Source of the DNA: Elusimicrobia bacterium CG1_02_56_21 | Lineage (GTDB): Bacteria > Elusimicrobiota > Elusimicrobia > Elusimicrobiales > UBA9959 | Reading direction: 5' to 3' | DNA length: 64,000 bases | NCBI GenBank assembly: GCA_001871115.1 | Contig: MNUR01000077.1 | Location: 4,589-68,588 of the forward strand | In this document: positions 6,322 through 57,025 of the stretch, piece after piece | How the letters are laid out: each line of letters opens with the position of its first letter | Position numbering within the stretch: the stretch's first letter is position 1 | The notes under the pieces: generated by a model | Told to the model about the DNA's origin: nothing | What the model saw: the letters and a program-made list of their open reading frames with translations, nothing else | The model's database searches: none | Translations under genes and position numbers: made by a program

Positions 6322-6327
6322 GCAAGC

Positions 6328-30192: not shown

Positions 30193-30210
30193 GCAGTAAA
30201 GGGAAAAAGA

Positions 30211-30237: not shown

Positions 30238-30252
30238 ATTTTCGCATAGTAC

Positions 30253-30280: not shown

Positions 30281-30287
30281 ATAAACG

Positions 30288-31151: not shown

Positions 31152-31163
31152 GACGGTAGATCG

Positions 31164-32729: not shown

Positions 32730-32750
32730 TAACACTACCCGGCAAGCGCA

Positions 32751-32787
32751 AAAGAAAGCCCCCGCTCTAAATGCGGGGGCTTTCTTT
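32751..32787. terminator. bidirectional intrinsic terminator
   Basis: Perfect 15-bp stem AAAGAAAGCCCCCGC / GCGGGGGCTTTCTTT with a 7-nt loop, between convergent genes. Confidence 0.8.
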
Positions 32788-32819
32788 TGCCGGGGGCGGA
32801 CCGCGGAGCAGGTATAGAC

Positions 32820-34547: not shown

Positions 34548-34583
34548 GTCTGGAGCGAACCGCTGCTCTTTGCGGCCCGCAGC

Positions 34584-35840: not shown

Positions 35841-35921
35841 AAGTAAACAAAAAACGTTCGCGGGATCCGAGGCTCGGCCCTCCTTATAGCCAATCCTTTA
35901 ATCCTCCAGCCCTCAGATCCT

Positions 35922-37031: not shown

Positions 37032-37100
37032 TGCTGTCGCTCCTGGGCTGAGTAGCCGTTCATTCTACCGCTGAATCCCGGCAAAACCTGGCGGCCGCGC

Positions 37101-37781: not shown

Positions 37782-37942
37782 GAAAACCCGAAGTTTCAAC
37801 TTTCGGGGCTGAACACCGGGAAAGCCCCGATACTACATATAATATAAAAAACAGGGCCCTTTAAAGAACCGCCGCGGGCCCGGAGGGAAATACGGCGCTT
37901 TAAATGGCCCGGGGCGCCAAGTCCTCCCGGGCCGTTTTAGTC

Positions 37943-40997: not shown

Positions 40998-42248
40998 TTA
41001 TTTAAGCAATGAAAGATATTTTCTGAGGGCTTCAATGAAGAAAGCGGTGTCCCGCGGGGTATTGTAGGCGAAGAAGGAGATCCTTATGGTTTCGCGGAAA
41101 CCGGAGGCGAGGCAGGCCAGGTCTGCGCAATGGCGGCCGGTGCGGACGGCTATAAAGCGGCCCTTCAGCTGCAGGTTGAGGAACTGGTTAAAATCAGGGA
41201 TTGAAAAACTCTTTTTCTCGGGGACCATAGAAATAAGCGACCCCTCGGCCAGGTCTTCACGCTCTCCCAGCACGCGCACGCCATTCATACCTTCAAGAAG
41301 ATCCAGCCCGCCCGACACCAGGCCCGAAATATGCTTTCTGATATTTTCAAATCCGCATTTTTCCAGCCGCTTAATAGTAACCGCCAGGGCGGAGGCGCCG
41401 GAGTAATTCTGAACCCCCGCTTCGAAACCCTGGTAATTTTCCAGGTACTTGACCTTGTAGCGCCCTCCCGCCACGGAGACGTCCTCTATGGTTCCGCCGC
41501 CGACCCTCCAGGGGCGCAGCTTGCCCATCAGCTCCCGCTTTACATAAAGCGCCCCGGTGCCGTAAGGCGCCCCTATCTTATGCCCTGAAAAAGCGCAGGC
41601 GTCCGCGCCGCAAAGGGCGCCGCCGCCTGCATGCGAGGGGGCGAACTGCGCGTCGTCCGCAAAAAAATATGCTCCTGCGCTGTGGGCCAGGGCCGCCGCG
41701 GAGGAGATATCCTCGCGCCCGCCGAATATATTGGAGGCGTGGGTAAAACAGACCAGGGCGGTCCTGGGTCCCAGCATTTTAGCGTAAGTTTTCATGTCCG
41801 GCTTAAGACCGCCGAGCGGGACCACCCTCAGCTTTATTTTGCCGGCGGCCGCGAGGCGCTCGAAAGGCAGGAAAACGGCGTTATGTTCCAGCGGCGAAAG
41901 TATGACCTCGCTGCGCCCGGGAGTGAAGGGGAAGGCATTGGCCAGCAAATTTACCGCGTCCGTAACTCCCGAGGTGAAAATAATCTCTGCGGGGGAGCGG
42001 GCGCCCATAAAAGAAGCCACGGCGGCGCGCGCGGAGTGGAAATTCTCTTCCATTGCCAAGGCCAGGGCGTGCACGGAGCGTTTCCCCCCGCAGCCGCCAA
42101 GCTTCAGCATATGGCGCTGCTGTTCCCGCGCTGCGCAGCGCATTTTAAGAACGGTGCAGGCGCTGTCCAGATAAACCATGCGGCGGCCCCCGAACCGCGC
42201 GCCCAGCGCGGGAAATTCCTTTTTAAGAGCGGCTATTTTTTCTTTCAT
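40998..42248 (-). CDS. class V aminotransferase / cysteine desulfurase-like (last gene of the rSAM operon)
   Basis: PLP-lysine motif FSGHKIGAPYGTGALYV; 416 aa. ATGA overlap with the upstream rSAM gene. Confidence 0.85.
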   Translation of the reverse strand: MKEKIAALKKEFPALGARFGGRRMVYLDSACTVLKMRCAAREQQRHMLKLGGCGGKRSVHALALAMEENFHSARAAVASFMGARSPAEIIFTSGVTDAVNLLANAFPFTPGRSEVILSPLEHNAVFLPFERLAAAGKIKLRVVPLGGLKPDMKTYAKMLGPRTALVCFTHASNIFGGREDISSAAALAHSAGAYFFADDAQFAPSHAGGGALCGADACAFSGHKIGAPYGTGALYVKRELMGKLRPWRVGGGTIEDVSVAGGRYKVKYLENYQGFEAGVQNYSGASALAVTIKRLEKCGFENIRKHISGLVSGGLDLLEGMNGVRVLGEREDLAEGSLISMVPEKKSFSIPDFNQFLNLQLKGRFIAVRTGRHCADLACLASGFRETIRISFFAYNTPRDTAFFIEALRKYLSLLK

Positions 42249-43087
42249 AAATTCTTATGTACGGCGATATAATCTTTCCTGGGCCCGGGGCAAAGCCTGA
42301 AGAAACGGCAGCCCCGGCAGGCAGGCACACGCTTCTTCTCCAGCAAATGCGGGCCTCTGAGCCCTTTCCTCATTTTTACCATATCAACGCTGAGCCGGTA
42401 AAATTCACCGAGGAAACAGGGCGGGATATGGTCCACCTCGCATTTTATTTTGTTCGCCCGGCACAGAGCCAGGGCCCGCTCAAGATAAGGTTTCACCGCT
42501 TTATATTCAGGCAGGAACCTGGCCCCCGCTCTGCCGGCGCCTTTTATATAGCTGAACTGGAGCCAGGCCGCCCCCTTCAGTTGTTTGGCCGCGAAAGCGG
42601 CGAAAGCGGGCAGGAGGCGGTAATTGAGGGAGCTGATAACATGGGTCAGCCGCACGGCAGCCCCGGCTTTTATAAGCCTCCTGACCCCTTCAAGCCTTTT
42701 TTCAAAACCGCCGCGGGCCCGGGTGATCTTAAAATCCAGAGCGGCCGATGAAGCGGGAAAGTTTATATTAAAATAACCGCCCGCGGCGTTCAGCGCGCGG
42801 ATTATTCTTAAAAGGTCAGCTTCGGGCATGGACGCCGCGAGCAGAGCGTTGCTCTGAAGCTCGGCTTTTCGGCCCATCTTCTTTACCCCTGCAAGGAGGA
42901 GCTGCAGGGCCGCGGCGCCGGCCAGCAGCGGCTCCCCGCCGGAGATCTGGACGGGCCCGGCCGGCATTGCGGCTATCTCTTTAAGCCAGTTTTTCAAAGA
43001 GTCGGGTTCGTCAGCGCCCTGTTCAGCCGGGTAGGAGCAGAACACGCAGCGCTGGTTACATTTGCGGAAAAGGTGTATTAAAGCCAT
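42245..43087 (-). CDS. radical SAM enzyme, short auxiliary-cluster family (paralog group 1b)
   Basis: CNQRCVFC at the N-terminus, GGEP motif, conserved IPPC plus C-terminal CRGCRFFRLC. Confidence 0.85.
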   Translation of the reverse strand: MALIHLFRKCNQRCVFCSYPAEQGADEPDSLKNWLKEIAAMPAGPVQISGGEPLLAGAAALQLLLAGVKKMGRKAELQSNALLAASMPEADLLRIIRALNAAGGYFNINFPASSAALDFKITRARGGFEKRLEGVRRLIKAGAAVRLTHVISSLNYRLLPAFAAFAAKQLKGAAWLQFSYIKGAGRAGARFLPEYKAVKPYLERALALCRANKIKCEVDHIPPCFLGEFYRLSVDMVKMRKGLRGPHLLEKKRVPACRGCRFFRLCPGPRKDYIAVHKNL

Positions 43088-44271
43088 TTTTCAATTTCTT
43101 CGTATGGTTTTGCCAGCGACCAGTAATAAGTCCCGCGCGAGAACCGGCTTTTTACCAGGCCTTTCCGGGCAAGGCGGCCGGCCGAGTTCATTACCGCGTT
43201 ACCGTCGGAGCAATCGCGGCAGAGCACGATATTTTTGGAAAGTTTAAGTGTCTCTTTGGTGGAAGCCTCTTTTCTTCCTTTCAGTATCTCTACAAGGCAG
43301 CGCTCGTTATCCGAGAGGAAGATCCTGCCGGGGGCAGGCCCTTCTTCCGGGCCGGCTCCCGCTCCGACCGGAGTAAACCCTTTCCAGCCGAATATTTTCA
43401 CATAATGCCCGTCGGCACCGCCGCATTTCTTAGCCAGTGCGCACTTCCGGCAGGGAGGACCCTTAACCTTCGCGGCTTCCGCGTTCGCGTCCAGGTCCGT
43501 ACTTTTTCCGTCCGGGTCGGTTACCACCGTATTAAACGAATCGAGCCCTATCGCCAGGGTCTCGCGCCCCTTGATAAAGCAGGGCGGGGTATTGAGAAAA
43601 AGTATCTCTCCGGGCAGGCCCGCTCCCTCCATCGTCTTTACGGCCCGGAGAAAATGAGGGGCGCATTCCGGCAGGCTCACTCCCAGTTTCTTGGCGTTGG
43701 CGGCCATAGCCCCGATATAGACCGGGTAGATGATGACGAAATTGGTTATCCCCCGCTCCAGGTAGAATTTAATTATTTCGGGGAGCCGGTTATAGTTGCG
43801 GCGATTGACCAATATATTGGTGCCCACTCTTATTTTAAGGGAGCGCAGGTTCTTAAGCCCGGCCAGCGCTTTTTTAAAAGCGCCGGGGACCCCTACCAGG
43901 GCGTCATGGGCCTTTTCATTGTCGGTTGTGAAAGAGAATTTACAGAACGTCAGGCCGGCCCTGGCCAGCTTGCCGCAGAAAGCGGCGTCGGCCAGCTTTA
44001 TCCCGTTGGTCTGCACCCGTATAAAGTCGAACCCTACCGACTTGCCGAGCCCTATCACCTTGAGAATATCCGGCCTTATCAGAGGCTCCCCGCCGGTCAG
44101 GCCCAGCCTGCCGTAGCCGGCCTTACGGGCGGCGTAGATATTGCGGGCGATAGCTTCGAACGGCGCGTTGCGGGACTTGTCAAAGTCCCCCTGCGAGCAA
44201 AAAAGGCAGCGCGCATTGCAGTTATAGTTGAGTATCAGCTCGTAACATTTTCCGGTAGCTTTTTTTGCCAT
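43078..44271 (-). CDS. radical SAM enzyme, short auxiliary-cluster family (group 1a) with about 90-aa C-terminal extension
   Basis: CNARCLFC, LTGGEPLIRPD, HDALVGVPGAFKK, TPPC plus CRKCALAKKC, then an extra domain (ERCLVEILKGRKEASTKETLKL...YYWSLA). Confidence 0.85.
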   Translation of the reverse strand: MAKKATGKCYELILNYNCNARCLFCSQGDFDKSRNAPFEAIARNIYAARKAGYGRLGLTGGEPLIRPDILKVIGLGKSVGFDFIRVQTNGIKLADAAFCGKLARAGLTFCKFSFTTDNEKAHDALVGVPGAFKKALAGLKNLRSLKIRVGTNILVNRRNYNRLPEIIKFYLERGITNFVIIYPVYIGAMAANAKKLGVSLPECAPHFLRAVKTMEGAGLPGEILFLNTPPCFIKGRETLAIGLDSFNTVVTDPDGKSTDLDANAEAAKVKGPPCRKCALAKKCGGADGHYVKIFGWKGFTPVGAGAGPEEGPAPGRIFLSDNERCLVEILKGRKEASTKETLKLSKNIVLCRDCSDGNAVMNSAGRLARKGLVKSRFSRGTYYWSLAKPYEEIEKWL

Positions 44272-44279
44272 ATAGAATA

Positions 44280-45275
44280 TTAAAGGCCGTGGATGCGCCT
44301 GAACAGCGGGCTTGAAAGCCCGGCTTTGGCCGCCGCTTTAAGCCAGAGCGAAGAGATCTTCCTGGCCCGGGCCTGGCCGGGAGGGACCGGCCCGGGCTTA
44401 GCCCTGAACCGCGCCGCGGCCCAGGGCGCGGCGGGGCACATCGACTGCGAGGAATTTATCCCGCTCCCGGCGGCCAGCCTGAAAAACTTCTGCCGGCCCT
44501 TTCCGTCCGCTGCGACGCGCAACGGCGAGATCATTGCGGCGGGCCCCGAAAGCATCTTGTCGCAGGGATAAAAAAAACCGTCGGGGGCCAGTGTAATATT
44601 CCTGCAGGGTCCCGGGCGCGCTCCTCCGGCCGCCTGCGCGATAGCTTCATACCCGTTGGCGAGTTCCCACACCCCGCGCCCTTTCCGCAGGCGCACAAGA
44701 TACTCCAGGCGCAGCTCTTTTGCAGAGGAAGCGAGCCTGGACAGAGCGGCCTTGTTCCAGGGGGCTGTTATATCCGGCGCCCAGGCCAGGCGCTCGAATC
44801 CCAGGCCGAGCAACCGGGTAATGACGGCTACGAGCTGCCCGGCTTTGTCGGGCGTTATGACCGCGCTGGCGCAGGCTTTTTTCCGCAGCCGGGGCGGCAG
44901 ATTTTTCAGGGCCTTCTTTTCTTCGCAGGCCCCGCCCAGGCTTACGGTAAGCTTTATCCCCCGGCCCAGCAGCCGCGCCGCCTCGCCTTTTTCAAGAAGC
45001 AGCCCGTTAGTGAACAGGTGTACCGGCGCGCCGGGGCCGAAAAGTTTCCTTATCCGGTCCAGCGCGCAGTACAAAAGATCCCGGCAGAGCAGCGGCTCCC
45101 CCCCGAGCACGGTAAACTTAGGGGCTTCCGGCCTGGCCGCCGCGAATGAAGCCAGGGCCGCCAGCAGGGCGCGCCGGGAGATAGTGCCGCCGGAGACGCC
45201 GGAAGCGTAGCAGTAGGAGCAGGAGAGGTTGCAGCGCCCGCTCAGGTAAATAACAAGATGGTCAGGTCTGGTCAT
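44280..45275 (-). CDS. radical SAM enzyme with twitch/SPASM-like C-terminal motif (group 3)
   Basis: CNLSCSYC, LGGEPLL, CRNITLAPDGFFYPC (Cx9-15Gx4C). Paralog of 54932-56014. Confidence 0.85.
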   Translation of the reverse strand: MTRPDHLVIYLSGRCNLSCSYCYASGVSGGTISRRALLAALASFAAARPEAPKFTVLGGEPLLCRDLLYCALDRIRKLFGPGAPVHLFTNGLLLEKGEAARLLGRGIKLTVSLGGACEEKKALKNLPPRLRKKACASAVITPDKAGQLVAVITRLLGLGFERLAWAPDITAPWNKAALSRLASSAKELRLEYLVRLRKGRGVWELANGYEAIAQAAGGARPGPCRNITLAPDGFFYPCDKMLSGPAAMISPLRVAADGKGRQKFFRLAAGSGINSSQSMCPAAPWAAARFRAKPGPVPPGQARARKISSLWLKAAAKAGLSSPLFRRIHGL

Positions 45276-46242
45276 CGCTTGATCTGTGCCGCAGGCCGCC
45301 GGGCCCGCGCTTCAGTTTCTTTACCGGCTTAAGCTCTCTGTCGCCGTAATTCTTCAGGTATTCCACCCAGATCCCCTCGCAGGCGGAATAGAGGAGGCAG
45401 CCGCGGCAGCGCGCCGTTTTCCTGCGGCCGAGCGCCGCGCGCGAACCGATAGCGTCCGTGTTTACAAAATCCGGGGCCCAGTGCTCGGTCAGGAAAAGGG
45501 TTTTCTCGTTTATCTCGCTTATCTGCTCGAGGCAGCCGGTGAAATGGCAGAGGGGGACGTACCTCGCCTTCCACTGGTCCATTCCGGAGCGCAGCCCTAT
45601 TTCCAGCGCCCGCCGCATGAAAGGCGCGGCTTTGGAGATGCGCGGGACCAGGACCTGAAAATTATTTTTAGCGCCGCCGTAATTAGGGTCTACGAAGATA
45701 TACTCTACATTCCTTATTTTATTGCGGACGTAAAAAGCGGCGAGCCGCGGCAGCGCGGACATATTCTGCTTTACCACGGTGGTGTTGCCGTTGATCCGCT
45801 TAAAGCCCAGTGCCTTAAGGTTTGCGAGCCCCTTTTTAAGCTGGCTGAAACTGCCGGAAGCCCGGGTAAGCGCGTCATGCACCCGCGCGCCGGGCCCGTG
45901 CACCGAGAAGATCAGGGAATCTATCCCGGAAGCCACTATTTTTTTAGCAGCCGCCATGTCCGCAAATACCCGGCCGTTCGTAGCGCAGGCCACCTCGGCT
46001 ATGCCCAGCTTTTTGGCGGCCTTTACCACCCGGCTGAAATCAGGGCGTATAGTGGCTTCCCCGCCTATTATCTCCAGTATATCGGCGCCTTTATTTTTAG
46101 CCTGCAGAACCTCGCGCAGAAGCTCAGCCGTGCTTTTCTCCGGCAGGCCGCGCTTGTCCGAGTCTATGCAGAAAGCGCAGTTATTGTTGCAGGCGTAGCC
46201 GGTAAATATGACTATCTTGAGTTTTTTCCCGTTCTTTTTCAT
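45262..46242 (-). CDS. radical SAM enzyme, short auxiliary-cluster family (group 1b)
   Basis: CNNNCAFC, IGGEATIRPD, VHGPGARVHDAL, VPLC plus CRGCLLYSAC...ELKPVKK. Confidence 0.85.
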   Translation of the reverse strand: MKKNGKKLKIVIFTGYACNNNCAFCIDSDKRGLPEKSTAELLREVLQAKNKGADILEIIGGEATIRPDFSRVVKAAKKLGIAEVACATNGRVFADMAAAKKIVASGIDSLIFSVHGPGARVHDALTRASGSFSQLKKGLANLKALGFKRINGNTTVVKQNMSALPRLAAFYVRNKIRNVEYIFVDPNYGGAKNNFQVLVPRISKAAPFMRRALEIGLRSGMDQWKARYVPLCHFTGCLEQISEINEKTLFLTEHWAPDFVNTDAIGSRAALGRRKTARCRGCLLYSACEGIWVEYLKNYGDRELKPVKKLKRGPGGLRHRSSDDQT

Positions 46243-47390
46243 CGGAGCATCCCGGCCAGGTTGCGGTCCAGAACCAGCGAGAGCACGGCCCCGGCGAAGA
46301 TCCAGAGCGCGAAAGGCCTGCCCCGGACAACCTCCACCTTGGGATTATGCACTTTCAAGCTGTTCAGCCAGGTCCTCAGTTCGCCCACCTGCTCCTCGCT
46401 CAGACCGTCCTTGAAACAATCGTCGAACGCACCTTCAAAAGCCGTATTATCCTTGAGCATTTTCGAGGCTTTCGCGGACAGCACCATTCCCGGCTCGAGT
46501 TCGCGGGCCGTAACGTGATACATATCTTTCTTCTCCATCAAAAATTCAAGCATGAAGCGGCCGAAGAAAAGCAGCAGGCTGAATTTGAAGAAATTACTCA
46601 AAGCCCCCGAAGCCAGCAGCCAGAGATGTTCGGGGAAGAAAAAGAAACCGCCGACAAAATACACCGCGTAGCAGCCCGCGCTGAGATAGCCCCACCGCCG
46701 GCTGCTGAACGCCCCGCCGATCTTGTCCCACAGCATGAACATGAAGAAGAACAGGATATCCGCCCTGGAAAATATTTTCCCGAGGAATCCGCGGGCCTCC
46801 AAAGCCAGGACCTGGTGGAGCAGAAAAACAAAGCCTATATTCAAAGCCAGGGCCGCTACGGCCGCTTTATTCCTGCCGGCGCTCAGCACCGCCATCCGCT
46901 TTTTCATATCAGACCAGACCTCAGCGAAGAAGTCTGAAGGGGAAGCTGAGCTGAACCCGGAAGCGATAAAGCTCCCGAGTATCCACACCGCCGCGCTCAC
47001 GAATATATTTATCAGCAGGCTTAGAAAAAGATAGTGGGGAAAATTACGGAGGTAAGGATTGGCCAGGGGGAGCGAGGCCGAAACCAGCATAAAGAACTTG
47101 GCGTCCCCGGCAGGCCAGATCTCGGAATACCAGAGCACCAGCCCGGCCAGCACGGACCAGAACAGATGAATAGCCAGCAGGAGGTAGAAATTATAATTCA
47201 TGAAGCTCTGCGCGCGCCCCGTATAGCCAAGCGCGGTATACACCAGGAAAGCGGCCAGAGAGGCGGCGAACAGCCTCATCCCGGTCTTTATAGCGGCGTT
47301 AGGGATCTTCCTGGTGGCCAGGTCGCGGCTTACGACAGAGGCCGCCCAGACGGTGAAAGCGGCGAGGAACACAAGAGATACGGTTTTCAT
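46239..47390 (-). CDS. A24 (prepilin peptidase/TadV/FlaK-like) aspartic protease domain membrane protein with extra TM helices and C-terminal soluble domain
   Basis: Both catalytic Asp motifs are present: RDLATRKIPN near the N-terminus and WPAGDAKFFML. About 9-10 TM helices, 383 aa. ATGA overlaps on both sides. Confidence 0.8.
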   Translation of the reverse strand: MKTVSLVFLAAFTVWAASVVSRDLATRKIPNAAIKTGMRLFAASLAAFLVYTALGYTGRAQSFMNYNFYLLLAIHLFWSVLAGLVLWYSEIWPAGDAKFFMLVSASLPLANPYLRNFPHYLFLSLLINIFVSAAVWILGSFIASGFSSASPSDFFAEVWSDMKKRMAVLSAGRNKAAVAALALNIGFVFLLHQVLALEARGFLGKIFSRADILFFFMFMLWDKIGGAFSSRRWGYLSAGCYAVYFVGGFFFFPEHLWLLASGALSNFFKFSLLLFFGRFMLEFLMEKKDMYHVTARELEPGMVLSAKASKMLKDNTAFEGAFDDCFKDGLSEEQVGELRTWLNSLKVHNPKVEVVRGRPFALWIFAGAVLSLVLDRNLAGMLR

Positions 47391-48280
47391 TTTTTCACCG
47401 GCTTTAATTCCGAATCCCCGAAAGCCTTATAATACTCGAGCATCAGCCCGAGGCATTTTCTCCTGAGGCGGCAGCCGCGGCAGGCCGCGGGATAGATCCT
47501 GTCTTCAGGGGGCAGGGTGATCCGGGCCAGCGGCCTGAGTTCGGGCCTGAGTTGGCAGAGCGGGAAATGGTAAAGTCTGAAATCGGAAAACTTTTTTATC
47601 AGCGGGAGCGCGGCGCCCACCACCTTAGAGGAAACCGAGAATTTAAGCCCTACGGAGCTGTGATTTTCAAGCGACATCCCTTCTATCTCGTAATGTATGG
47701 CCGTGACGGTATAGCTCCCGGTGTCGGGGAACTTCTTAAGCAGGAACTCCAGGGTTTTAGGAAAAGCCGCCAGGTTTTTCTTATGCAGGACCAGGCGTAT
47801 CTCTACCCTTACGCCCCCGGCCATGGAGAAAAGATTCTCCAGGCCGCGCACTGTCTGGCTAAAAGAGCCCCTCACCCCGGCCACGGGATCATGAACGCCA
47901 GCCGAAGGGCCGTGCACGGCTATAGCCACCGAAAACGGGGGCCTGGCCAGGCGGGCGAATTTACCGGCGAATTTCCTATCCGCGAAAAGGCGCCCGTTAG
48001 AAAGCAGCGTTATAGGAATCCCGGGCATCCGGCGGCGGAAATAAGCTACCAGCTGGAAAAAATCGGGGTGGATGGTAGGCTCCCCGCCCGTCAGGCTGAT
48101 AAACCCGGCCAGGCCGGAATTTTTAAGGTATACCTGCCCCTGGCCCTTGAGATAGCGCTCCAGCTTCTCTATCTGGCATTTAAGGCGGTACTGAGAAGAA
48201 TCCTGGCGCGCGAAAGACTCCATATTGGTGCACATGACACACTTGTTATTGCATTTATTCCAGAGGGCGATATCAGGCAT
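47387..48280 (-). CDS. radical SAM enzyme, short auxiliary-cluster family (group 1b)
   Basis: CNNKCVMC, LTGGEPTIHPD, VHGPSAGVHDPV, FPLC plus CRGCRLRRKC...ELKPVKK. Confidence 0.85.
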   Translation of the reverse strand: MPDIALWNKCNNKCVMCTNMESFARQDSSQYRLKCQIEKLERYLKGQGQVYLKNSGLAGFISLTGGEPTIHPDFFQLVAYFRRRMPGIPITLLSNGRLFADRKFAGKFARLARPPFSVAIAVHGPSAGVHDPVAGVRGSFSQTVRGLENLFSMAGGVRVEIRLVLHKKNLAAFPKTLEFLLKKFPDTGSYTVTAIHYEIEGMSLENHSSVGLKFSVSSKVVGAALPLIKKFSDFRLYHFPLCQLRPELRPLARITLPPEDRIYPAACRGCRLRRKCLGLMLEYYKAFGDSELKPVKK

Positions 48281-48283
48281 GGC

Positions 48284-49723
48284 TCAGCTTTCGCCTCCCT
48301 TTTCCAGCCAGGCTTCGATTATTTCTCTGGTCTTCTTTTTTTCAAGCAGAGAGAAAACGGCCTTGAACATCCCTTTTTGCAGCGCGCACCAGGAACCGTT
48401 CCTGATATTCCCCCACGGAGAACCCTGCACGGAGTAATTATGCACCGGGCAGACCCCGCAGAAAGGCTTAAAAGCGCAGCGCGCGCAGTAAGGCTGGTTC
48501 TCAAGGCAGGAAGCCATTGCGCAGACCCTGGCTGCCGGGGCGGTAATAAGCTCCCTGAACTTCTCTTTACGCACATTCCCCAGCCGGAAAAAATCGTCAC
48601 CGCAGGCGGCTACCATCCGGCCCTCGTCGCAGGTATAGACGTCCCCGTTGAAATTATAGGCCAGCTGCCCTATGCCCGCGCCGCAGGGCGAGCGCAGGTC
48701 GAGAAAATTGGGGTCCTCCGCGCGCAGTATCTTGCGCGCCAGCAGCGCCGCGTTGCGTTCAATGAACTTCTCTCCCCGCCCGTTGACTTTCATTATGTAG
48801 TCTAGGCAGGAGGAGTAAAAACCCAGAAAATCGTTAGGGCCATAACCGATATCGGCCCACATCCCGCCGGCATAGCCTATCGGAGAAAGCGGGCGCAGAA
48901 AAATCCCTCCCAGGCCCAGCGCCCGGTACTCGTCCACTATGCCCCGGGGATCTTTCAGCGAAAGCCTGGTAGTGGTCATAAGGGCAGAAGGCAGGGCGTC
49001 GGCCCGGCCGTCTTTGGCCGCGGCTGCGGAAAACCGTTTTAGCCAGTACACCGCTTTACAATGAGAAGAACCGCCGGACCACTTCCGGTTGGCGTCGTGC
49101 AGCCCGGCCGGACCGTCGAGAGAAGTGCAGACGGACACTTCTTCTCTGACCAAAAACCTGAATTTAGCCTCGTCCATCAGGCTCAGATTGGTAACTACCG
49201 AGAGCGCCAGGTCTTTTCCTTTCTTTAAATTTATCTTTTTAGCGTAGAGGACAGTCTCAACAAGCACCGGCCAATTAAGCAGGGCTTCCCCGCCCTGGAA
49301 CTCAATGGATATTTTTTTATTGGGGGAGGAAAAAGCCGCGTCTACGGACCTGGCGGCGGTAGCGCGGCTCATGTCGGTATTTTTTCCGCAGCCGCCTGGA
49401 GTCGCCCGGCAGTATACGCAGGCGTGGTTGCATTTCAGCGTAAGCACCAGTATATGCAGGCCCGGCCCCTCGTAAACACCGGCTGCAAGGCCCCTGGCGC
49501 GCTCCTCCGCCCCTTCGAAATCCAGCCGCGCGCGCAGCAGCCCGGCCGCCTCAAGCCTGCGGAAAAGCCCCGACTTTTTCTTGACCTTGCCTGCCCTGAA
49601 AAGCCGGAACTCCGGGCCGGTAAGCCTTAGGGCGGCCCCGAACGGGCTGCTCACTATATAGCCCGTCCCGTCGCTCTCAAAGCAGAAATCAAAAGGGGCT
49701 GAAATATTTTCCGTAGCTTTCAT
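48284..49723 (-). CDS. radical SAM/SPASM enzyme, anSME-like with about 100-aa N-terminal extension (group 2)
   Basis: CNHACVYC, FQGGEALL, full SPASM (CGAGIGQLAYNFNGDVYTC ... CARCAFKPFCGVC). Start set to ATG 49723 (MKATEN), which overlaps the upstream stop as ATGA. Confidence 0.9.
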   Translation of the reverse strand: MKATENISAPFDFCFESDGTGYIVSSPFGAALRLTGPEFRLFRAGKVKKKSGLFRRLEAAGLLRARLDFEGAEERARGLAAGVYEGPGLHILVLTLKCNHACVYCRATPGGCGKNTDMSRATAARSVDAAFSSPNKKISIEFQGGEALLNWPVLVETVLYAKKINLKKGKDLALSVVTNLSLMDEAKFRFLVREEVSVCTSLDGPAGLHDANRKWSGGSSHCKAVYWLKRFSAAAAKDGRADALPSALMTTTRLSLKDPRGIVDEYRALGLGGIFLRPLSPIGYAGGMWADIGYGPNDFLGFYSSCLDYIMKVNGRGEKFIERNAALLARKILRAEDPNFLDLRSPCGAGIGQLAYNFNGDVYTCDEGRMVAACGDDFFRLGNVRKEKFRELITAPAARVCAMASCLENQPYCARCAFKPFCGVCPVHNYSVQGSPWGNIRNGSWCALQKGMFKAVFSLLEKKKTREIIEAWLEKGGES

Positions 49724-50448
49724 TTTATTCTCCGGCCGCACAGGCTGCGGCGCCTGCGGCCCCGGGCGACTTTAAAATCATTAACCTTAAGAAATTTCTG
49801 CCCGCCTACAGCGCCCCGCCCCAGCCGGACGGGGATTATTCTGCCCGCAAAAGCCGGGCTGCCGAGAACCAGGGTCTGAAGGTCGCTTCCATCTATAGTG
49901 CGGCCTGCGTTCTTTTCGGCAATGATATAGGCCAGAAATTCTTGACCCATCTCCCGTCCCAGCCAGCGCTTGTCAACTTTCTTCACCTCTACTCCGGTAA
50001 TAAGCGCGCGCACTCCCAATTTAAGGCAGAGCCTTACCGCGTAAACAAGATCGAAGCCTATAACCGGCGCGGACAGCCCGAACCCCGCCCGGGCCGCAGC
50101 TTTCCGCCAGGCGTCTATCTTGCCCCCGCAGCGGCAGCGGGCCACTCCCGTAACCAGCGTGTCGGCCCCGCAGGCTTCGCGGGCGGCGTCCGCCATCAGC
50201 CCAACGTTCCTCGACAGCGCCTTTACCCTGAACCCGGGCCCCGTCTTTACAATAACCGCCGGGATACCCAGCAGGCGCGCATGCGCCTCTATTATCTTTG
50301 TCTTCCTGGAGTCGTTAAAATATTCTATGTGCCGGGGGCCGCCGTCAAAACCCACGAGGCAGCCTATTTCCGCCCCGGCGGCAGCCGCTTCCAGCAGGGC
50401 CAGGTGACTGTCCTTGCCCCCGCTGTAAATGACGGCGCACTTTTTCAT
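49720..50448 (-). CDS. PP-loop ATP pyrophosphatase, MJ0570/Dph6 N-terminal domain family
   Basis: N-terminus MKKCAVIYSGGKDSHLALLEA carries the SGGKDS PP-loop; 242 aa. Confidence 0.85.
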   Translation of the reverse strand: MKKCAVIYSGGKDSHLALLEAAAAGAEIGCLVGFDGGPRHIEYFNDSRKTKIIEAHARLLGIPAVIVKTGPGFRVKALSRNVGLMADAAREACGADTLVTGVARCRCGGKIDAWRKAAARAGFGLSAPVIGFDLVYAVRLCLKLGVRALITGVEVKKVDKRWLGREMGQEFLAYIIAEKNAGRTIDGSDLQTLVLGSPAFAGRIIPVRLGRGAVGGQKFLKVNDFKVARGRRRRSLCGRRIK

Positions 50449-51361
50449 TTGCGCCCCGCTTTCTTTTTTCCCGGGCAGGCTTGAACTCGCTCCAGCCGTA
50501 GAGCTCCGGGTACTCGCGCCAGGGGCCCTCGCAGACCTTGAACCATTTGCAGGAGCGGCATTCCGCGCGTTTTACCTTGCCTTCGTCGCGGCGGTAATCT
50601 CCATAGCTTTCGATATAAAGGTCCGCGTCTGAAACCGGCCCCTCGGGGATCACGCTCTCGGCCACGCATTTCTCGTAACCTTTCATAAGGCAGTACGGAA
50701 TGGCCTCCGTAAAGCAGGGGATGTCTTTACTAATGCCGCAGTCCAGAGCCCGGTGCAGATACGGGACTATGTCGGTTTTCCTGGGAGTCAGCCATTTCCG
50801 GTTCTCCCAGGCCGATCCCACCAGGTGCACAAAAGCGAACTGGAACTGGTCTACCTTGAGATAAGCCAGGAGCTTGGCCAGCTCGGGCAGGTCTTTGTAA
50901 TTGACGGAAGTGATGACCGAATTGGTCAAAACGAACATCCCGAGTTTTTTGCAGTTCAATATTCCCTGCACCACTTCTTTAAAGCTGCCTTTGGCACCTG
51001 TAAGCTTCTCGTGAATTTCCGGCCTGGAGCCGTGCATGGACGGCCCCATCTCGGTAACGCCTGCTTTTTTCAGCTCGGCGCAGTAATCGTAATAGGCGAA
51101 GCGGCGGCCGTTGGTCTGCACCTGAACGCTTTCATAACCCATCTTGCGCGCGGCGCGTACCGCAGCCGGCAGGCCGGGGTGGAGAGTTGGTTCGCCGCCG
51201 GTAAAAACCACGGCGCTGACTCCGGTTTTCCTGGCCCGGGCCAGGTCGGACTTTATCTCGGCCAGGCTTTTACGGGCCGCAAGAGAGCGCTTCGCGCCCT
51301 GGGCGCAGAAGTCGCACATATTATTGCAGTTGAAGCCTATTTTTATGTCGATGCGTTTCAT
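50345..51361 (-). CDS. radical SAM enzyme, short auxiliary-cluster family (group 1b)
   Basis: CNNMCDFC, FTGGEPTLHP, IPYC plus CRSCKWFKVC...EFKP. The 3' end overlaps the next gene by 104 nt in another frame. Confidence 0.85.
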   Translation of the reverse strand: MKRIDIKIGFNCNNMCDFCAQGAKRSLAARKSLAEIKSDLARARKTGVSAVVFTGGEPTLHPGLPAAVRAARKMGYESVQVQTNGRRFAYYDYCAELKKAGVTEMGPSMHGSRPEIHEKLTGAKGSFKEVVQGILNCKKLGMFVLTNSVITSVNYKDLPELAKLLAYLKVDQFQFAFVHLVGSAWENRKWLTPRKTDIVPYLHRALDCGISKDIPCFTEAIPYCLMKGYEKCVAESVIPEGPVSDADLYIESYGDYRRDEGKVKRAECRSCKWFKVCEGPWREYPELYGWSEFKPAREKRKRGANEKVRRHLQRGQGQSPGPAGSGCRRGGNRLPRGF

Positions 51362-53541
51362 TTTACGGCCTTCAAGCCTTTTACTGCGAATTTTTCGGAA
51401 TAACCTTTAGCCGGCCCCGGGCACTTAAGGAGGAATTTGCACTTCAGGCACAGCTTGGGTTTCAGCGCCCCGGCCGCCCCGCCCGATTCTCTTGCGTCCC
51501 CGGACGCGCTTCCCTGCAGGTAGTCGGCGGACAGCTTCCAATGCGGGTAAAGAGCGCAGAGAGGAACCCTGAGGAACTTGACAGGCAGCCCGCTGCAGGC
51601 CGCCGCTTCGGCCAGCGGGCGCAAAGCCGCATAATCAGAGACTATATTCCCGGTTCCTTCAGGGAAAGCCAGGATAATGCTGCCGGCCCCGGCTTTCACA
51701 AAACTCCCAGCCGCGCCAAGCAGCCCGGCCGGGACGGGCTTTCGTATAACCCCCACCATGCAAACGGCAAGACCGGCAGCTGAAGCGCTCCTGACCTGCG
51801 CAAGGTCAGCAGGGCGCGCGCTTTCCGCTTTGAACATAAAATTATCCGCCCCGGCCGACCTGAGCGCGGAGAAATATCCCGCGTCGCGCGGCAATGCCGA
51901 GAGCAGCGAAACTTTTTTAAAACCGGCCTTCGCGGCGCAGCGCACGGCGCCCAGCTCCAGGCTGCCGGGACCGCCCGGCCGTCCGCAGATTATCAGGGCC
52001 TCAGAGCGGCCGGAATTGGCGGCGGTTAAAAGTGCCAGAGCAATTTCCCGGGAGGTCAGTTCCGGACCGGATTGAGGCGCCCCGTAAAGAAGGCTTTCTA
52101 CCCCGCCGGCAAGGCACAGCTCGAACTCGCCCGCCGCAGTTTTATTAAAGTCCGGGGGCGCAAGAACCGCCGCCGAAGACCTGGCGGGGGAAACTTTCCC
52201 GTAGATCTCTTCCAGGCGCCTTACCACGCCGGGAGAATAAAACTCGCGGCGCAATTCGCAGGTGGCGCGCTCCCTGTCTTTCACCTGCAGGGACCTGCCG
52301 GAGACCGACAGGACTCCGGAACTCAGCAGCCTTTTTATCTTACCGGGAAAAGCGGCCCCCGGGCCTACACCAAAGCGGCGCCGGAAAGTCTGCTTATCCA
52401 CCTGTCCGCGGTGCAGCGCGTCCAGTATCACAAAATTCGCCATCTCGTCTTTTTGGCTCAGCAGGGCGCCGGCTTCCGTAGGCAGCCTGCCTGCCGAGAG
52501 TTCGGACTCATAAAGCCTCTCGTCCGGAACATTGCGGTACCTGATCCCGTTCATCGCATAGGACACGGAGCTGGGACCCAGCCCGAGTATGGAATAAGAA
52601 CCTTCTTCCCCCTGGTCGTAACTGTAGGGCCACCAGTCGCCTTTGCGCTTATACACCCAGTGACCGCAGCGCATTTTATAGCCCTTGTCGAAAAGAATAT
52701 CCATCCCGCGGCGGCGCCAGGCCCTGGCGTCTTCCAGCGCATTTCCCTCCAGGGAACCGCCTTTGCCCCCGGCAGTGGTGCGGTACTTGGGCTGGAAATC
52801 AAAAAGATAAACTCTTTCCACGTCCAGGGCGGCAGTCGTCCTGACGTCTTTGAGAAAACTTTTTTCCGTCTGACCCGGCAGGCCGGTAATAAGGTCAACC
52901 TCTACCTGCAGGATACCGGCTTTCTTCGCCTGCTTTATAACCTCTATGGTCCGAGCCGGGTCCTGACGCCTCCCGAGAGCTTTCAGCAGCAGCGGATCGA
53001 AACTCTGCACTCCTATAGCCAGCCACTCCACTCCCGCAGCTTTGAGATAAGCCAGCTTAAGCGCGTCGAGCGTATTGGGGCTGGCCTCAAAAGCTATCCT
53101 GGTCTTCGGGGTTATTTTAAAATATGCGCGCAGTATTCCGAAAAGCCTTTCCAGCTGCGGGATGGTCAGCAGGCTGGGAGTCCCCCCTCCTATGCAAAGA
53201 AACCGCAGCGGCCGCCCTTTAAAGAGCGGGCCCATTATCGCTGTTTCCTTCTCGAGGGCGTCGAGGTAGCGGTCCACGGCCCCGGGAGCCGAATGGATCT
53301 TATAGAAGCCGCAAAAACGGCACAGCGTCTCGCAGAATGGGACATGGACATAGACCACGGGCCGGCGCCCGCCGTCCGACTTAAGCGAGCGCACCCAGGC
53401 GGCCTTTGTCTTATCAGCACTGCTCAGCCGGGGCCAGGCGGCCATAGGCGGATAATTAGGCGGGGCCTCAGGCAGGGAGTCCCTGTCGACGCAGGCCAGC
53501 AGCCTTTCAAAAGATATAGTCGTCCGTTCTTTTTCCATCAT
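51358..53541 (-). CDS. HemN-like (class C) radical SAM enzyme fused to a degenerate copy of the short rSAM paralog domain
   Basis: N-terminal VHVPFCETLCRFCGFYK and IGGGTPSLL (HemN family). The C-terminal ~280 aa lack CxxxCxxC but keep VPLC plus CLKCKFLLKCPGPAKGY, as in the paralogs. 727 aa. Confidence 0.85.
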   Translation of the reverse strand: MMEKERTTISFERLLACVDRDSLPEAPPNYPPMAAWPRLSSADKTKAAWVRSLKSDGGRRPVVYVHVPFCETLCRFCGFYKIHSAPGAVDRYLDALEKETAIMGPLFKGRPLRFLCIGGGTPSLLTIPQLERLFGILRAYFKITPKTRIAFEASPNTLDALKLAYLKAAGVEWLAIGVQSFDPLLLKALGRRQDPARTIEVIKQAKKAGILQVEVDLITGLPGQTEKSFLKDVRTTAALDVERVYLFDFQPKYRTTAGGKGGSLEGNALEDARAWRRRGMDILFDKGYKMRCGHWVYKRKGDWWPYSYDQGEEGSYSILGLGPSSVSYAMNGIRYRNVPDERLYESELSAGRLPTEAGALLSQKDEMANFVILDALHRGQVDKQTFRRRFGVGPGAAFPGKIKRLLSSGVLSVSGRSLQVKDRERATCELRREFYSPGVVRRLEEIYGKVSPARSSAAVLAPPDFNKTAAGEFELCLAGGVESLLYGAPQSGPELTSREIALALLTAANSGRSEALIICGRPGGPGSLELGAVRCAAKAGFKKVSLLSALPRDAGYFSALRSAGADNFMFKAESARPADLAQVRSASAAGLAVCMVGVIRKPVPAGLLGAAGSFVKAGAGSIILAFPEGTGNIVSDYAALRPLAEAAACSGLPVKFLRVPLCALYPHWKLSADYLQGSASGDARESGGAAGALKPKLCLKCKFLLKCPGPAKGYSEKFAVKGLKAVK

Positions 53542-54932
53542 TGATATTTCTCCGCCCAGCGCTCCAGTATCTTCCTGGTCCCGGGACGGCTTAACTTCTC
53601 AAAAACTATATCGAACACGCCCATAAAGACCCGGCACCTGCCGCTGGTCATCATGTCCCCCCAAAAACTTCCCTGTGCGGCGTAATTATAGACAGGGGAG
53701 ACCCGGCAGTACGGGCTGTACGGGCAGCGCGCGCAGCGCGGCTGGGCCAGGCGCGGGAAGCAGGAGAGGATCAGTGTTTTCCCCAGCGGGGAGGAGACCA
53801 TCTCCCCGAAAGAACCGGTAACGGAGCCCAGCCTGAAAAAATCATTACCGCCTGCAGCAAGAAGCCGGGCCTCGTCCGAACCGTAAACAGAACCGTCCGG
53901 GCCGTAAGCCAGACGGTAAAGCAGGTCCAGGTTCTGGTAGCGCGGCCGCTCTCCGGTTACAATATGCTTGACGAACATAAGGGCGCCTTTCTCATAGACC
54001 TCTACCCCGGCACGGTTAAGCCTCAGCATATGGTCCAGCGCTTTGGAATAGAAGGGCAGGAACTCTTCCGGGGTAACCGCGAGGCCGCAATTCCCCGCGG
54101 CCCGGCCTATCGGTTCCAGCGGGCCCAGCTGCACGCGCGCTATGCCCCTTTTTAAAAATTCGTCCACTATCTCCCCCGGATAGGGCAGGGAATATTTGGT
54201 GACGGTACAGATAGCGTTGAGGCTTTCTATCCCGCCTTTGGCGGAGAGCTTGTTAACCAGGGCTATGGCACGCGCCGCCGCGGCGTGGCTGGAGCCTCCC
54301 AAAAGTTTACGCGCCCGGTCGTGAACGGGAGCCGGCCCGTCGAGAGAGGTGCATAAAGTTACCCCGCGGGAGGAAAGGTACGCCAGTTTTTCAGGATTAA
54401 GCCCCGCCAGGTTGGACACCATTGAAAAATGCAGGCCCCGCCCCGTCCTGGCGGCGCGGCTGCGGGCTTCCTCTATCAGGTACTTCACGACCCTGAAATT
54501 ACGCAGCGGTTCGCCGCCCTGGAATTCTATCACCAGCTCCCGCGACCCGGTCCTGAAAATAAAATCCAGGGTTTTTCCCGCCGTGGCCAGGGACATGTGC
54601 CGGCCGCCGGCGGCGGCCGAGGCGCCGCAATAAAGACAGGCGTGGTCGCAATCCCCCGTCACCGACACGATATGCACCCTGGGCCCGGCCCAGTCTTTAA
54701 GCAGGGCCGCGAAGTGGCCGGGGAGCAGCTTTTCAAAATCCAGAAGCCCGCTGAAGAAACCGCGGGCGCCCAGCGTCTCGTTCTCGGCGGCCGGCAGGGG
54801 CGCGCCCGAGGCGAAACGGGAGAGTGACGAGGCTTTTATTTCCGCGTTCCGCGAGAAATCGTTGGAAAGCAGGCAGGCCCCGCCGCGGCGGGCGAAGTTG
54901 AAATCGGAAGGCTGATTTTTCTTTGCCGCCAT
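53538..54932 (-). CDS. radical SAM enzyme, anSME-like paralog with degenerate SPASM domain (group 2)
   Basis: CDHACLYC, FQGGEPL, C-terminal CARCPYSPYC only. Start set to ATG 54932 (MAAKKNQ), overlapping the upstream stop (TGATG). The longer track ORF would overlap the upstream gene by 213 nt. Confidence 0.85.
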   Translation of the reverse strand: MAAKKNQPSDFNFARRGGACLLSNDFSRNAEIKASSLSRFASGAPLPAAENETLGARGFFSGLLDFEKLLPGHFAALLKDWAGPRVHIVSVTGDCDHACLYCGASAAAGGRHMSLATAGKTLDFIFRTGSRELVIEFQGGEPLRNFRVVKYLIEEARSRAARTGRGLHFSMVSNLAGLNPEKLAYLSSRGVTLCTSLDGPAPVHDRARKLLGGSSHAAAARAIALVNKLSAKGGIESLNAICTVTKYSLPYPGEIVDEFLKRGIARVQLGPLEPIGRAAGNCGLAVTPEEFLPFYSKALDHMLRLNRAGVEVYEKGALMFVKHIVTGERPRYQNLDLLYRLAYGPDGSVYGSDEARLLAAGGNDFFRLGSVTGSFGEMVSSPLGKTLILSCFPRLAQPRCARCPYSPYCRVSPVYNYAAQGSFWGDMMTSGRCRVFMGVFDIVFEKLSRPGTRKILERWAEKYQ

Positions 54933-56014
54933 CAGATATACCCCTTTTTGAATAATTTTATCAATTGCCTGAGATAAGCCTTCATTGCGGGTTCCGAAGC
55001 CGCGCGGGCCACTATTTCCCTGGCCGCGTCCCGGCAGACCCCGGTGCGCAGGGCATGGGCGCGGCTCCCGTCCGACAGACCGGGGAGGCGGTAATAGGAC
55101 CGCAAGCATTCCCGGCAGAGCTTCGAACCCGCTTTTGGCCTGCAAGCCAGATAGCGCCCAGCGAGGCCGCTCCCCGCGCTGCCCACCGCGGCCGCGCGGC
55201 GCTGCGCCGCCGTCTTCAGGAAAGGGTAAGGATAGAAAGACAAAGTTCCGTCCGGGAAAAGCTCGAGGTCGCGCAGGAACGGACAGAAAGAATTAGCGTA
55301 CTCTTTATCGCGGAGGAGTTCGAGCAGCGGCTCCAGGACCACGGGCTTCCCCGAAGCGGCGCGCTCCAGGGTGAACCGGGCTATCTTCCGCATTCCCCCC
55401 TCAAAAGCGGCGTAATCGGCGGCGCGCCAGGGAACCCCGTGCACGCACTCAATACCTATGTTCGCAAAACCCTGCTTCACCAGGCTCTGAAAATCTCCGT
55501 AAACCGCGGCGGCGCGGCGCGGGTGCACGCACAGGATAACGTGCAGGTTCTCTCCGAGCGCGGAAGTAAAAAGCGGGATCTTCTTTTCCACCGCGCTGTA
55601 GGAACCTTTGCCCGAAATAAATTTGCGCGACAGGTCATGGCTTCTCCCGCTGCCGGAGAAACTCACGGCGAACCTGGCGCCGCGCCCGGCCAGCCAGCCC
55701 AGTTCTTCGGGCCCGGCCAGAACCCCGTTGCTCGCGACGGAAACCGCCAACAGCTTGCCCAGTTTTTTAGCCCTGGCTATCGCCGCGGTTATTATCTTTT
55801 TAACAAGAACAAATTCCATCAGCGGCTCGCCGCCGTATATCTCGAGGGTTTTGCTCTTTCCCGGGGAACCCAGGAAGGCGTATACGGCCGCCGCCGCGTC
55901 CTTAAAAGGGATGGTCTCTGCCCTGCTTTTATCTATAAAACAATGGGTGCACCTCAGGCAGCAGCCCGAAGTCACGGCGATCTTGAATTTCAGAACTTCT
56001 TTATTGAACTTCAT
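54932..56014 (-). CDS. radical SAM enzyme with twitch/SPASM-like C-terminal part (group 3)
   Basis: GCCLRCTHC, YGGEPLM, CPFLRDLELFPDGTLSFYP. Paralog of 44280-45275. Confidence 0.85.
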   Translation of the reverse strand: MKFNKEVLKFKIAVTSGCCLRCTHCFIDKSRAETIPFKDAAAAVYAFLGSPGKSKTLEIYGGEPLMEFVLVKKIITAAIARAKKLGKLLAVSVASNGVLAGPEELGWLAGRGARFAVSFSGSGRSHDLSRKFISGKGSYSAVEKKIPLFTSALGENLHVILCVHPRRAAAVYGDFQSLVKQGFANIGIECVHGVPWRAADYAAFEGGMRKIARFTLERAASGKPVVLEPLLELLRDKEYANSFCPFLRDLELFPDGTLSFYPYPFLKTAAQRRAAAVGSAGSGLAGRYLACRPKAGSKLCRECLRSYYRLPGLSDGSRAHALRTGVCRDAAREIVARAASEPAMKAYLRQLIKLFKKGYI

Positions 56015-57021
56015 TTCTTTTTCTTAAGCAGCTTCTCCGCGCGCTTGAGCCTGTTATGGGACGGCAGAAGAGGGAAAGGCGCCGCCTCCTTTTTAACAGG
56101 CCTGAACTCTTTGCTGCCGAAAATATCGGAATACCATTTCTCGAACCCCATGCACCTGCCGTTATAGACGCAGCTGCTGCAGGACTTGTTCTTAAGGCAA
56201 AGCCTTTCTTTAAGGCCGTGTATCCTGTCTTCCCTGCCGTCAATATGAAAGAGCGGCTCGTCTGTTTTGGGAGCCGCGGGGCGCTCCCATTCGGCCATCA
56301 GGTGCGCGGCCTCGGGGATATTGCAGGGGCAGAAATTCACCAGCACAGAATCCTCTATAACGGCCCCGGAGCTCTTCAGGTACTCCAGAGCTTCCCGCAC
56401 ATAAGGCACAGCCTGCGTTACGCTGACTTTAAGCTCCCCGGCCCTTTCGGCCATCATCCCGTTATAGTGAGGGAAGATAACGTTAAAATCCTCTATGCCG
56501 AAACGGCCGCTGATAATTTCGAGAAGATTGCGCAGGGTTTTATAATTGGGCCCGGTAAGAGCGTGGTTAACAGAGATCTCGGCCCCGAGACGGGTCAGGT
56601 TTTCGAACGCCTTCATCACTTTTTTAAAAGCGCCGGGCACGCCCACAAGAGCATCGTGCAGCCCGGGGGTATGACCATGCACCGAGACCCGGAAAATATT
56701 AGCGCCCGCGTCCACAAGGGACTTCGCGTAGTCCGGGTCGGCAAGTTTCAGCCCGTTGCTCATAACCTGGACATAGGGGTAGCCCATCGAGCGCGCCAGC
56801 TTCACTATCTTCGGCAGGTCGGGGCGCATAGTTATTTCTCCGCCTATCAGGTAGGCGACCCAGCATTTTTCCATCCGGCCTTTGTACAGGGCCGCGGCCG
56901 CTTTTTCAAAGGGCATGCGCTCGGCCACCTGGTTCAGCACGGCGTCGGGGTGGTAGCAGAACCTGCACTTTGCGTTGCAGTCGTAATTGAGTATAACTTC
57001 GCAGTTCCTTGGTTTTATCAT
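56011..57021 (-). CDS. radical SAM enzyme, short auxiliary-cluster family (group 1a)
   Basis: CNAKCRFC, IGGEITMRPD, VHGHTPGLHDALVGVPGAFKK, CPC plus CSSCVYNGRC...EFRPVKK. Confidence 0.85.
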   Translation of the reverse strand: MIKPRNCEVILNYDCNAKCRFCYHPDAVLNQVAERMPFEKAAAALYKGRMEKCWVAYLIGGEITMRPDLPKIVKLARSMGYPYVQVMSNGLKLADPDYAKSLVDAGANIFRVSVHGHTPGLHDALVGVPGAFKKVMKAFENLTRLGAEISVNHALTGPNYKTLRNLLEIISGRFGIEDFNVIFPHYNGMMAERAGELKVSVTQAVPYVREALEYLKSSGAVIEDSVLVNFCPCNIPEAAHLMAEWERPAAPKTDEPLFHIDGREDRIHGLKERLCLKNKSCSSCVYNGRCMGFEKWYSDIFGSKEFRPVKKEAAPFPLLPSHNRLKRAEKLLKKKK

Positions 57022-57025
57022 TGGT

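Follow-up and report, generated by a model that had tools for sequence, protein, structure and literature searches.

A divergent A24-like membrane protein encoded in an expanded His-Xaa-Ser operon of Elusimicrobiota

We analysed a stretch of 64,000 nucleotides (hereafter the window) from Elusimicrobia bacterium CG1_02_56_21 (contig MNUR01000077.1, positions 4,589 to 68,588), in which a gene for a 383-residue polytopic membrane protein is embedded among radical SAM (rSAM) genes. Judged from the sequences of its relatives, the protein is very probably a remote homolog of the A24 prepilin peptidases with an intact two-aspartate site, and the operon that encodes it is an expanded His-Xaa-Ser (HXS) system, a context overlooked in the initial annotation of this DNA. 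Genome comparisons indicate that the A24-like protein is a dedicated component of the expanded HXS system in free-living Elusimicrobiota. We hypothesize, with a confidence somewhat short of even, that it removes the conserved leader of the HxsA peptide precursor at the inner face of the membrane.

Relationship to peptidase A24 and predicted architecture

The initial annotation had recognized both A24 aspartate signatures, in the canonical order, in the 383-residue polytopic protein, and both are present: RDLATRKIPN forms residues 22-31 and contains D23, while WPAGDAKFFML forms residues 92-102 and contains D96. When 185,579 species genomes were scanned by pattern, 146 relatives were returned, and the best 80 all come from Elusimicrobiota metagenome-assembled genomes. 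When 105 relatives with identities down to ~22% were aligned, residues D23, W87, W92, D96, and K98 were invariant in every sequence, G95 was kept in 102 of them, and N31 and N128 were nearly invariant. The first glycine of the GxGD motif was replaced by proline in 80 of the 105, so that the motif reads P-A-G-D instead.

Searched against the whole Pfam and NCBIfam libraries, the target itself matched no family. The Peptidase_A24 model PF01478, when used alone against this genome, matched two proteins: a canonical PilD-type protein encoded on another contig (C24; 61.3 bits) and the A24-like protein (E 2.4e-4, 22.6 bits), the latter over model positions 2-102 of 104. Matches to PF01478 were also obtained for 12 of the 32 close orthologs and, in a scan against all of Pfam, for 29 of 70 diverse relatives (identity down to ~22%) at E<=0.01, with a best value of 7.5e-9. 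No second Pfam family recurred among these 70, and two relatives carry precomputed PF01478 matches. The matches in relatives always covered the whole model and fell in the same N-terminal 140 residues. The homology to A24 is therefore supported by transitivity through the relatives rather than by the score of the target. Together, these matches and the two aspartates conserved in all 105 sequences bear out the earlier view of a divergent A24-type protein that keeps both putative catalytic residues, and the conservation of the two residues in orthologs, which had been proposed as a check, was complete.

Other profile comparisons did not extend this picture. An hhalign comparison with a single PilD gave a meaningless result, the family hidden Markov model (HMM) did not find PilD among all open reading frames (ORFs) of this genome, and a profile of the 32 orthologs had no match among the PDB sequences. 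TadV/CpaA, FlaK, and PibD belong to MEROPS A24B and to PF01478, and from the shape of the motifs in TadV and FlaK, the A24-like protein is probably nearer to the TadV/FlaK type than to PilD. The cut-offs of Pfam and NCBIfam miss this subfamily, and its members are mostly annotated "hypothetical protein."

An AlphaFold2 (AF2) model built on 32 orthologs (mean pLDDT 83.3, pTM 0.80) contains about 10 transmembrane (TM) helices, an amphipathic helix at residues 151-170, a soluble beta-alpha-alpha-beta unit at residues ~286-358, and a last TM helix at residues 361-374. The extra TM helices and the soluble segment ahead of the final one, both noted at the outset, were thus recovered by the model, but the segment measures ~73 residues and not ~90. 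The soluble domain alone, compared with the PDB by Foldseek, gave no fold match at E<2. By loop charge counts, the loops at residues 24-33, 146-176, and 226-233 are rich in Lys and Arg, and these charges combined with the AF2 helices predict that D23, D96, and the soluble domain are on the cytoplasmic side. The model suggests a protein composed of an N-terminal five-helix A24 core, five extra helices, a cytoplasmic domain of ~73 residues, and a PilD-like last helix.

Longer architectures were also observed. In the relative at L117 8001-9410, and in some 27 further representatives with lengths of 440-555 residues (P0182, P0207, and others), similarity to the query is confined to the N-terminal A24-like core (query residues ~5-140) and a second stretch. 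Two orthologs from related genomes contain an in-frame stop, a TAG in G114:C3:52611-53774, where the frame is open for 800 residues, and a TGA in G060:C20:103331-104482; such stops could come from errors in sequencing, or the genes could be pseudogenes or fused to their neighbours.

The expanded HXS operon and its distribution

Both genes that flank the A24-like gene are rSAM genes, and the ATGA coupling described for the two junctions was seen on either side as a 4-nt overlap, upstream as 'aaaaATGAaaacc' at 47387-47390 and downstream as 'ctccgATGAaaaag' at 46239-46242. We compared 81 related loci, many of them shortened by contig ends. The A24-like gene lies between same-strand rSAM genes in about 79 of these, usually in the order HxsB2 > HxsC-like > A24-like > rSAM326; it is an integral, conserved member of the operon and not a stray pilus gene. 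HxsB is encoded within 10 kb in 62 of the 81 loci and HxsD in 41, and precursors with His-Xaa-Ser (HxS) repeats were found in 22, besides the one on the contig studied here. Locus L100 has the precursor gene directly upstream of the A24-like gene. In L117 the precursor gene is directly upstream of the gene for a divergent 469-residue relative, and HxsD and B12-rSAM genes adjoin; that relative is followed by a TP_methylase-domain protein and then by an ABC exporter on the other strand.

Co-occurrence was also evident at the level of whole genomes. Across a sample of 121 genomes of the phylum, the A24-like protein was present in 8 and HxsB, over its cut-off, in 9, with an overlap of 8 (Fisher p 1e-11, uncorrected for phylogeny; one family accounts for six of the eight genomes). 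In all 8 genomes, HxsB was encoded on the same contig as the A24-like protein. The single genome with HxsB and without the A24-like protein has a compact, low-GC-looking HxsD-HxsB-HxsC locus beside a serine-recombinase-like gene, with HxsA cut off by the contig end (L118, G111:C123, 153-6534); this locus is probably of the canonical mobile HXS type.

The canonical-looking head of the system is encoded on this contig too, ~5 kb past the window's right-hand end (C31 73735-76907; locus L004 11736-14908, minus strand). It encodes an HxsB of 486 residues (493.4 bits), an HxsD-like protein of 106 residues, a Cys-rich membrane-anchored protein of 355 residues, and an HxsA4-type precursor, with the first three genes just upstream of the precursor on the minus strand. 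An rSAM/SPASM gene and then a B12-rSAM gene come after this block. The HxsD-like protein scores 43.6 bits with TIGR03976 (cut-off 50), and its ortholog in L006 carries PF27806 (HxsD). Locus L006, which contains a 49%-identical ortholog of the A24-like protein, has everything in one operon in the order HxsB-HxsD-CysRich-HxsA-six rSAM-A24-like-four rSAM-desulfurase.

Within the window, the short rSAM paralogs of the operon are HxsC- and HxsC4-like, and all are below the NCBIfam cut-offs. The best of the seven HxsC-like paralogs reaches 154 bits with TIGR03977 (cut-off 267.9), and there is no four-gene D-B-C-A layout in the operon. The coordinates of the A24-like gene, its functional parts, and its neighbours are collected in Table 1.

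Table 1. Coordinates in the window of the A24-like gene, its parts, and the surrounding operon (rSAM, radical SAM; TM, transmembrane; AF2, AlphaFold2)
Feature	Position	Strand	Basis or remark
A24-like polytopic membrane protein P0001, 383 residues	46239..47390	-	ORF and translation; 153 word-index homologs of 383-385 residues; 361 representative matches
A24 (PF01478) core, residues 11-135 (TM1-TM5)	46986..47360	-	PF01478 match in the search of its own genome
Asp23 codon, first putative catalytic Asp, motif D-x5-I-P-N	47322..47324	-	105/105 relatives; paired by hhalign with PilD's first Asp
Asp96 codon, second putative catalytic Asp, W-P-A-G-D-A-K (GxGD-type motif)	47103..47105	-	Conservation; paired by hhalign with GGGDIK of PilD
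Soluble domain, residues 286-358, predicted cytoplasmic; conserved LxPGM...FxDxFxDGLTxEQ	46317..46535	-	AF2, conservation, loop K/R counts
Last TM helix PFALWIFAGAVLSLVL	46269..46316	-	F360 and G367 invariant; weakly matched by hhalign to PilD's last helix
Operon of 15 genes: 12 rSAM, Dph6-like PP-loop protein, A24-like protein, cysteine desulfurase	40998..58120	-	
HxsC-like rSAM gene, 297 residues, upstream, ATGA-coupled	47387..48280	-	TIGR03977 154 bits, below the cut-off of 268; upstream neighbour in most related loci
HxsB paralog 2 (rSAM/SPASM)	48284..49741	-	TIGR03978 441.8 bits, above the cut-off of 370
rSAM gene, 326 residues, downstream, ATGA-coupled	45262..46242	-	PF04055; HxsC4/HxsC-like below cut-offs; conserved downstream neighbour

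A third, degenerate HxsB-like rSAM gene is present at 53538-55145 on the minus strand (TIGR03978, 311.6 bits, below the cut-off of 370, matching from model position 78); the cluster therefore contains three HxsB-type genes. The region between the operon and the head block runs from window position 58275 to the window end at 64000 and onward into L004 (~8336). It encodes two B12-binding rSAM proteins, an amine-oxidase/UDP-galactopyranose-mutase-like flavoprotein, a sugar-1-phosphate nucleotidylyltransferase, on the plus strand a GT2 glycosyltransferase, and a protein whose match to the cytochrome D1 heme domain is weak and under the cut-off. The compact L006 operon has none of these genes, which may have been inserted here or may form an additional branch for glycosylation. 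At window positions 37904-39139, long ORFs overlap on opposite strands; the real gene is a minus-strand aspartate/ornithine carbamoyltransferase, and the plus-strand ORF has no family match. PADLOC 2.0, which has no HXS model, returned only generic rSAM matches to pVip. A link to the nitrogenase-paralog/rSAM clusters of Elusimicrobia (bioRxiv 10.1101/765248) was considered and rejected, as Pfam assignments for ten window genes at 24548-37799 included no nif-like gene.

Candidate substrate and competing explanations

A scan of the whole genome for HxS repeats found one clear precursor, the one in the head block (MKKKKQSAGKNIKLFLNSEEGKMLDADIVKAGLALGILGAAMVDQASAQTVHQNYFTTNAHVSHQSHGSHG...HARGGWC). 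It is 106 residues long with 13 HxS repeats and an RGGWC tail, and it scores 71.4 bits with NF038313 (HxsA4), for which the cut-off is 55. Fifteen precursor sequences were compared. Common to them are a K-rich start, an invariant F-L-x-S-E-E, K30, a 12-13-residue hydrophobic L-G-I-x-G segment, an (A/L)-x-A-Q, an H-x-N, 10-30 HxS repeats, and usually the RGGWC tail. The invariant residues of the leader are F15, S18, E19, E20, L35, G36, and G39, and the leader motif is carried by one ORF alone in this genome. A K-x-(G/A) followed by hydrophobic residues recalls the context in which A24 enzymes cleave. The initial suggestion that the peptidase takes a leader off a membrane-targeted substrate of the rSAM enzymes thus gained a concrete candidate, with a leader and a short hydrophobic segment, but one that has no canonical class III signal.

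The canonical HXS system is an antiphage system that blocks the entry of phage DNA (Li et al., Nat Commun 2026, PMC13128918). In that system, HxsA matures in an rSAM-dependent manner and acts in the periplasm, and it undergoes an N-terminal cleavage other than simple signal-peptide removal, for which Li et al. did not identify the protease (PMC13128918).

We propose the following sequence of events for the expanded system. The precursor, consisting of the K-rich N-terminus, the FLxSEEGKxLxxDxxK leader, the LGIxG segment, the (A/L)xAQ, the repeats, and the RGGWC tail, would be modified in the cytoplasm by the many rSAM enzymes, and its hydrophobic segment would then insert into the membrane. 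The A24-like enzyme, with both aspartates on the cytoplasmic side, would cleave near K-x-(G/A) and so release the cytoplasmic leader, in the manner of prepilin peptidases acting on prepilins, and its cytoplasmic domain may provide a dock for the leader or for an rSAM partner. We suggest, yet more tentatively and from sequence comparison, that this would be the first intramembrane protease of the aspartyl (GxGD, prepilin-peptidase) type with a dedicated role in maturing an rSAM-modified peptide. By taking the HxsA recognition leader away at the membrane it would couple modification to export, stand in for the processing enzyme of canonical HXS, and constitute a new catalytic class of leader proteases of the type that acts on RiPPs (peptides made by the ribosome and then modified post-translationally).

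Several observations weigh against leader removal by an A24-type enzyme. On the enzyme side, the check with the Peptidase_A24 HMM turned out only partly as anticipated: the target spans the whole model and 29 of the 70 relatives match, but its own 22.6 bits are under the PF01478 cut-off of 26.5 bits. Its motif is P-A-G-D rather than G-x-G-D. The target escaped an HMM made only from this phylum's PilD sequences, and in hhalign comparisons with 27 PilD sequences of the phylum the core aligned weakly (E 0.11), with both aspartates in register, as did the last helix (PFALWIFAG vs PilD PFGPFLxxG, E 0.017). The full AF2 model gave nothing significant in a Foldseek search of the PDB, where FlaK (3s0x) ranked 45th with an E value of 5.5. 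On the substrate side, a class III signal combines a short basic leader, a G/A at -1, and ~20 hydrophobic residues, and the N-terminus of the precursor is not of this kind: the leader has 30-45 residues, the hydrophobic run only 12-13, and position +5 lacks a Glu. Signal peptidase I could plausibly cut at the conserved (A/L)-x-A|Q, which could explain processing without the A24-like enzyme. The precursor gene is ~22 kb from the A24-like gene in this genome, with sugar-related genes between them, and canonical four-gene HXS systems function without such a protease.

The plausible signal peptidase I site also fits an explanation in which proteolysis is absent or secondary and a repurposed A24 fold acts as a membrane scaffold, exporter, or anchor, tethering the rSAM enzymes or the precursor or helping to translocate the modified HxsA. 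The five extra TM helices and the conserved cytoplasmic domain exceed the catalytic needs of an A24 enzyme, and Li et al. propose that Hxs proteins are dedicated chaperones or translocators for HxsA export (PMC13128918). We nevertheless consider such a role unlikely, since both aspartates, G95, K98, and N31 stay invariant or nearly so down to ~22% identity, the pattern predicted by selection on an active site; in addition, Pfam scans of the target and its relatives found no transporter-like family. An active protease could instead have another substrate in the cluster, either an rSAM protein or the Cys-rich protein of ~355 residues encoded between HxsD and HxsA. The latter starts with MKK(G/S/W/A)+ and continues with a hydrophobic stretch of 18-20 residues; with its short basic leader and long hydrophobic run, it resembles a class III signal more closely than HxsA does, and it co-occurs in 21 of the 81 loci. 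That is far fewer than the loci with HxsB or rSAM genes, however, and it is HxsA that adjoins the peptidase gene in L117 and L100. Ahead of the hydrophobic run stands a variable residue (W, G, S, Y, A, T), and no G/A is conserved at -1, which weakens the case for the Cys-rich protein as a class III substrate, and we regard a substrate other than HxsA as improbable.

Two further explanations would separate the protein from the HXS system or from A24 altogether. If the resemblance to A24 were convergent or due to chance, the gene would encode an unrelated polytopic membrane protein, in keeping with its score under the Pfam cut-off and with reciprocal and structural searches that gave nothing. 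This is quite improbable given that PF01478, in competition with the whole library, is matched by 29 of 70 relatives while no other family recurs, that the matches always take in the whole model at the same N-terminal place, and that both aspartate motifs align in register. It would be still more surprising if the protein were an ordinary second prepilin peptidase for type IV pili or a Tad-like system, with only an accidental place in the operon. NCBI records do name two orthologs "prepilin peptidase," and KKG|FTLIEL signals mark six classical pilin-like ORFs in the genome. One of these is on C24, where the canonical PilD (261 residues, 61.3 bits) is encoded directly downstream of it (~4913-6333; L001 579-1977); the other five are on C27, C71, C87, C96, and C110. 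The classical pilin motif is absent from the contig studied here and the Flp motif from the whole genome, in line with the early remark that the window contains no pilin or Flp gene. Because a canonical PilD adjoins a pilin elsewhere in the genome, the A24-like gene does not serve pili, and the case of a pil locus without its own peptidase, which had been named as a possible refutation, does not apply. A canonical A24 protein is over the cut-off in 120 of the 121 phylum genomes; the A24-like protein is in only 8, all with HxsB over its own cut-off, and about 79 of 81 loci keep it between rSAM genes. We therefore discarded a housekeeping pilin peptidase, on the grounds of the PilD and pilin elsewhere and the co-occurrence with HXS.

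Comparison with known systems

To our knowledge, A24 proteases have so far been tied to type IV filaments, and a full-text search of the published literature found no paper linking prepilin peptidases to HXS or rSAM peptide systems. What is new here is the architecture of this A24 subfamily and its functional setting, which is conserved. The expanded Elusimicrobiota HXS system, with its intact two-aspartate membrane protein, offers a candidate enzyme class for the N-terminal cleavage of HxsA and a leader/protease pairing that can be tested. If the proposal is true, the repertoire of A24 would extend from type IV filaments to peptide maturation.

Like TadV/CpaA, FlaK, and PibD, the A24-like protein is polytopic, has its first aspartate in D-x5-I-P-N after TM1 and its second in x-G-D-x-K at the start of a helix, with both predicted to be cytoplasmic, and has a Pfam match over the whole model. 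It differs from them in its length of 383 residues compared with ~150-230, in five more TM helices and the ~73-residue domain that is predicted cytoplasmic, in P-A-G-D replacing G-x-G-D, and in a score under the Pfam cut-off. It also sits among rSAM genes, with no pilin, Flp, archaellin, or secretion-ATPase genes nearby. With PilD (A24A), it shares the two-aspartate core and a last helix, PFA-WI--G, that weakly resembles PFGPFL--G of PilD (hhalign E 0.017). Unlike PilD, which is found in 120 of the 121 phylum genomes, it occurs in 8, lacks the N-terminal Cys-rich methyltransferase region, and is missed by a PilD-only profile.

Canonical HXS systems have the genes HxsD-HxsB-HxsC-HxsA (TIGR03976-03979). 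The Elusimicrobiota cluster has in common with them an HxsB over the cut-off, an HxsD-like protein, and a His-Xaa-Ser precursor with an N-terminal export-type signal and a need for N-terminal processing. In contrast to the canonical four genes, it comprises more than 20, at least 12 of them rSAM, with two or three HxsB paralogs and seven HxsC-like paralogs under the HxsC cut-off, and it adds a cysteine desulfurase, a PP-loop protein, and the membrane peptidase. Its precursor of ~100 residues has 10-30 repeats and no peptidoglycan-binding domain, and the system belongs to Elusimicrobiota rather than Pseudomonadota.

A further parallel lies with the membrane-bound leader or tail proteases of RiPP pathways. 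The leader proteases listed in a 2023 RiPP review include M50 enzymes that are membrane-bound and no aspartyl or A24 enzyme (PMC10885120). Like the M50 proteases EpeP, TglG, and TmoG (PMC10885120), the A24-like protein would be a membrane-embedded protease in an rSAM peptide cluster and may couple cleavage to export. Those enzymes are zinc proteases, whereas the A24-like protein would belong to the aspartyl GxGD class.

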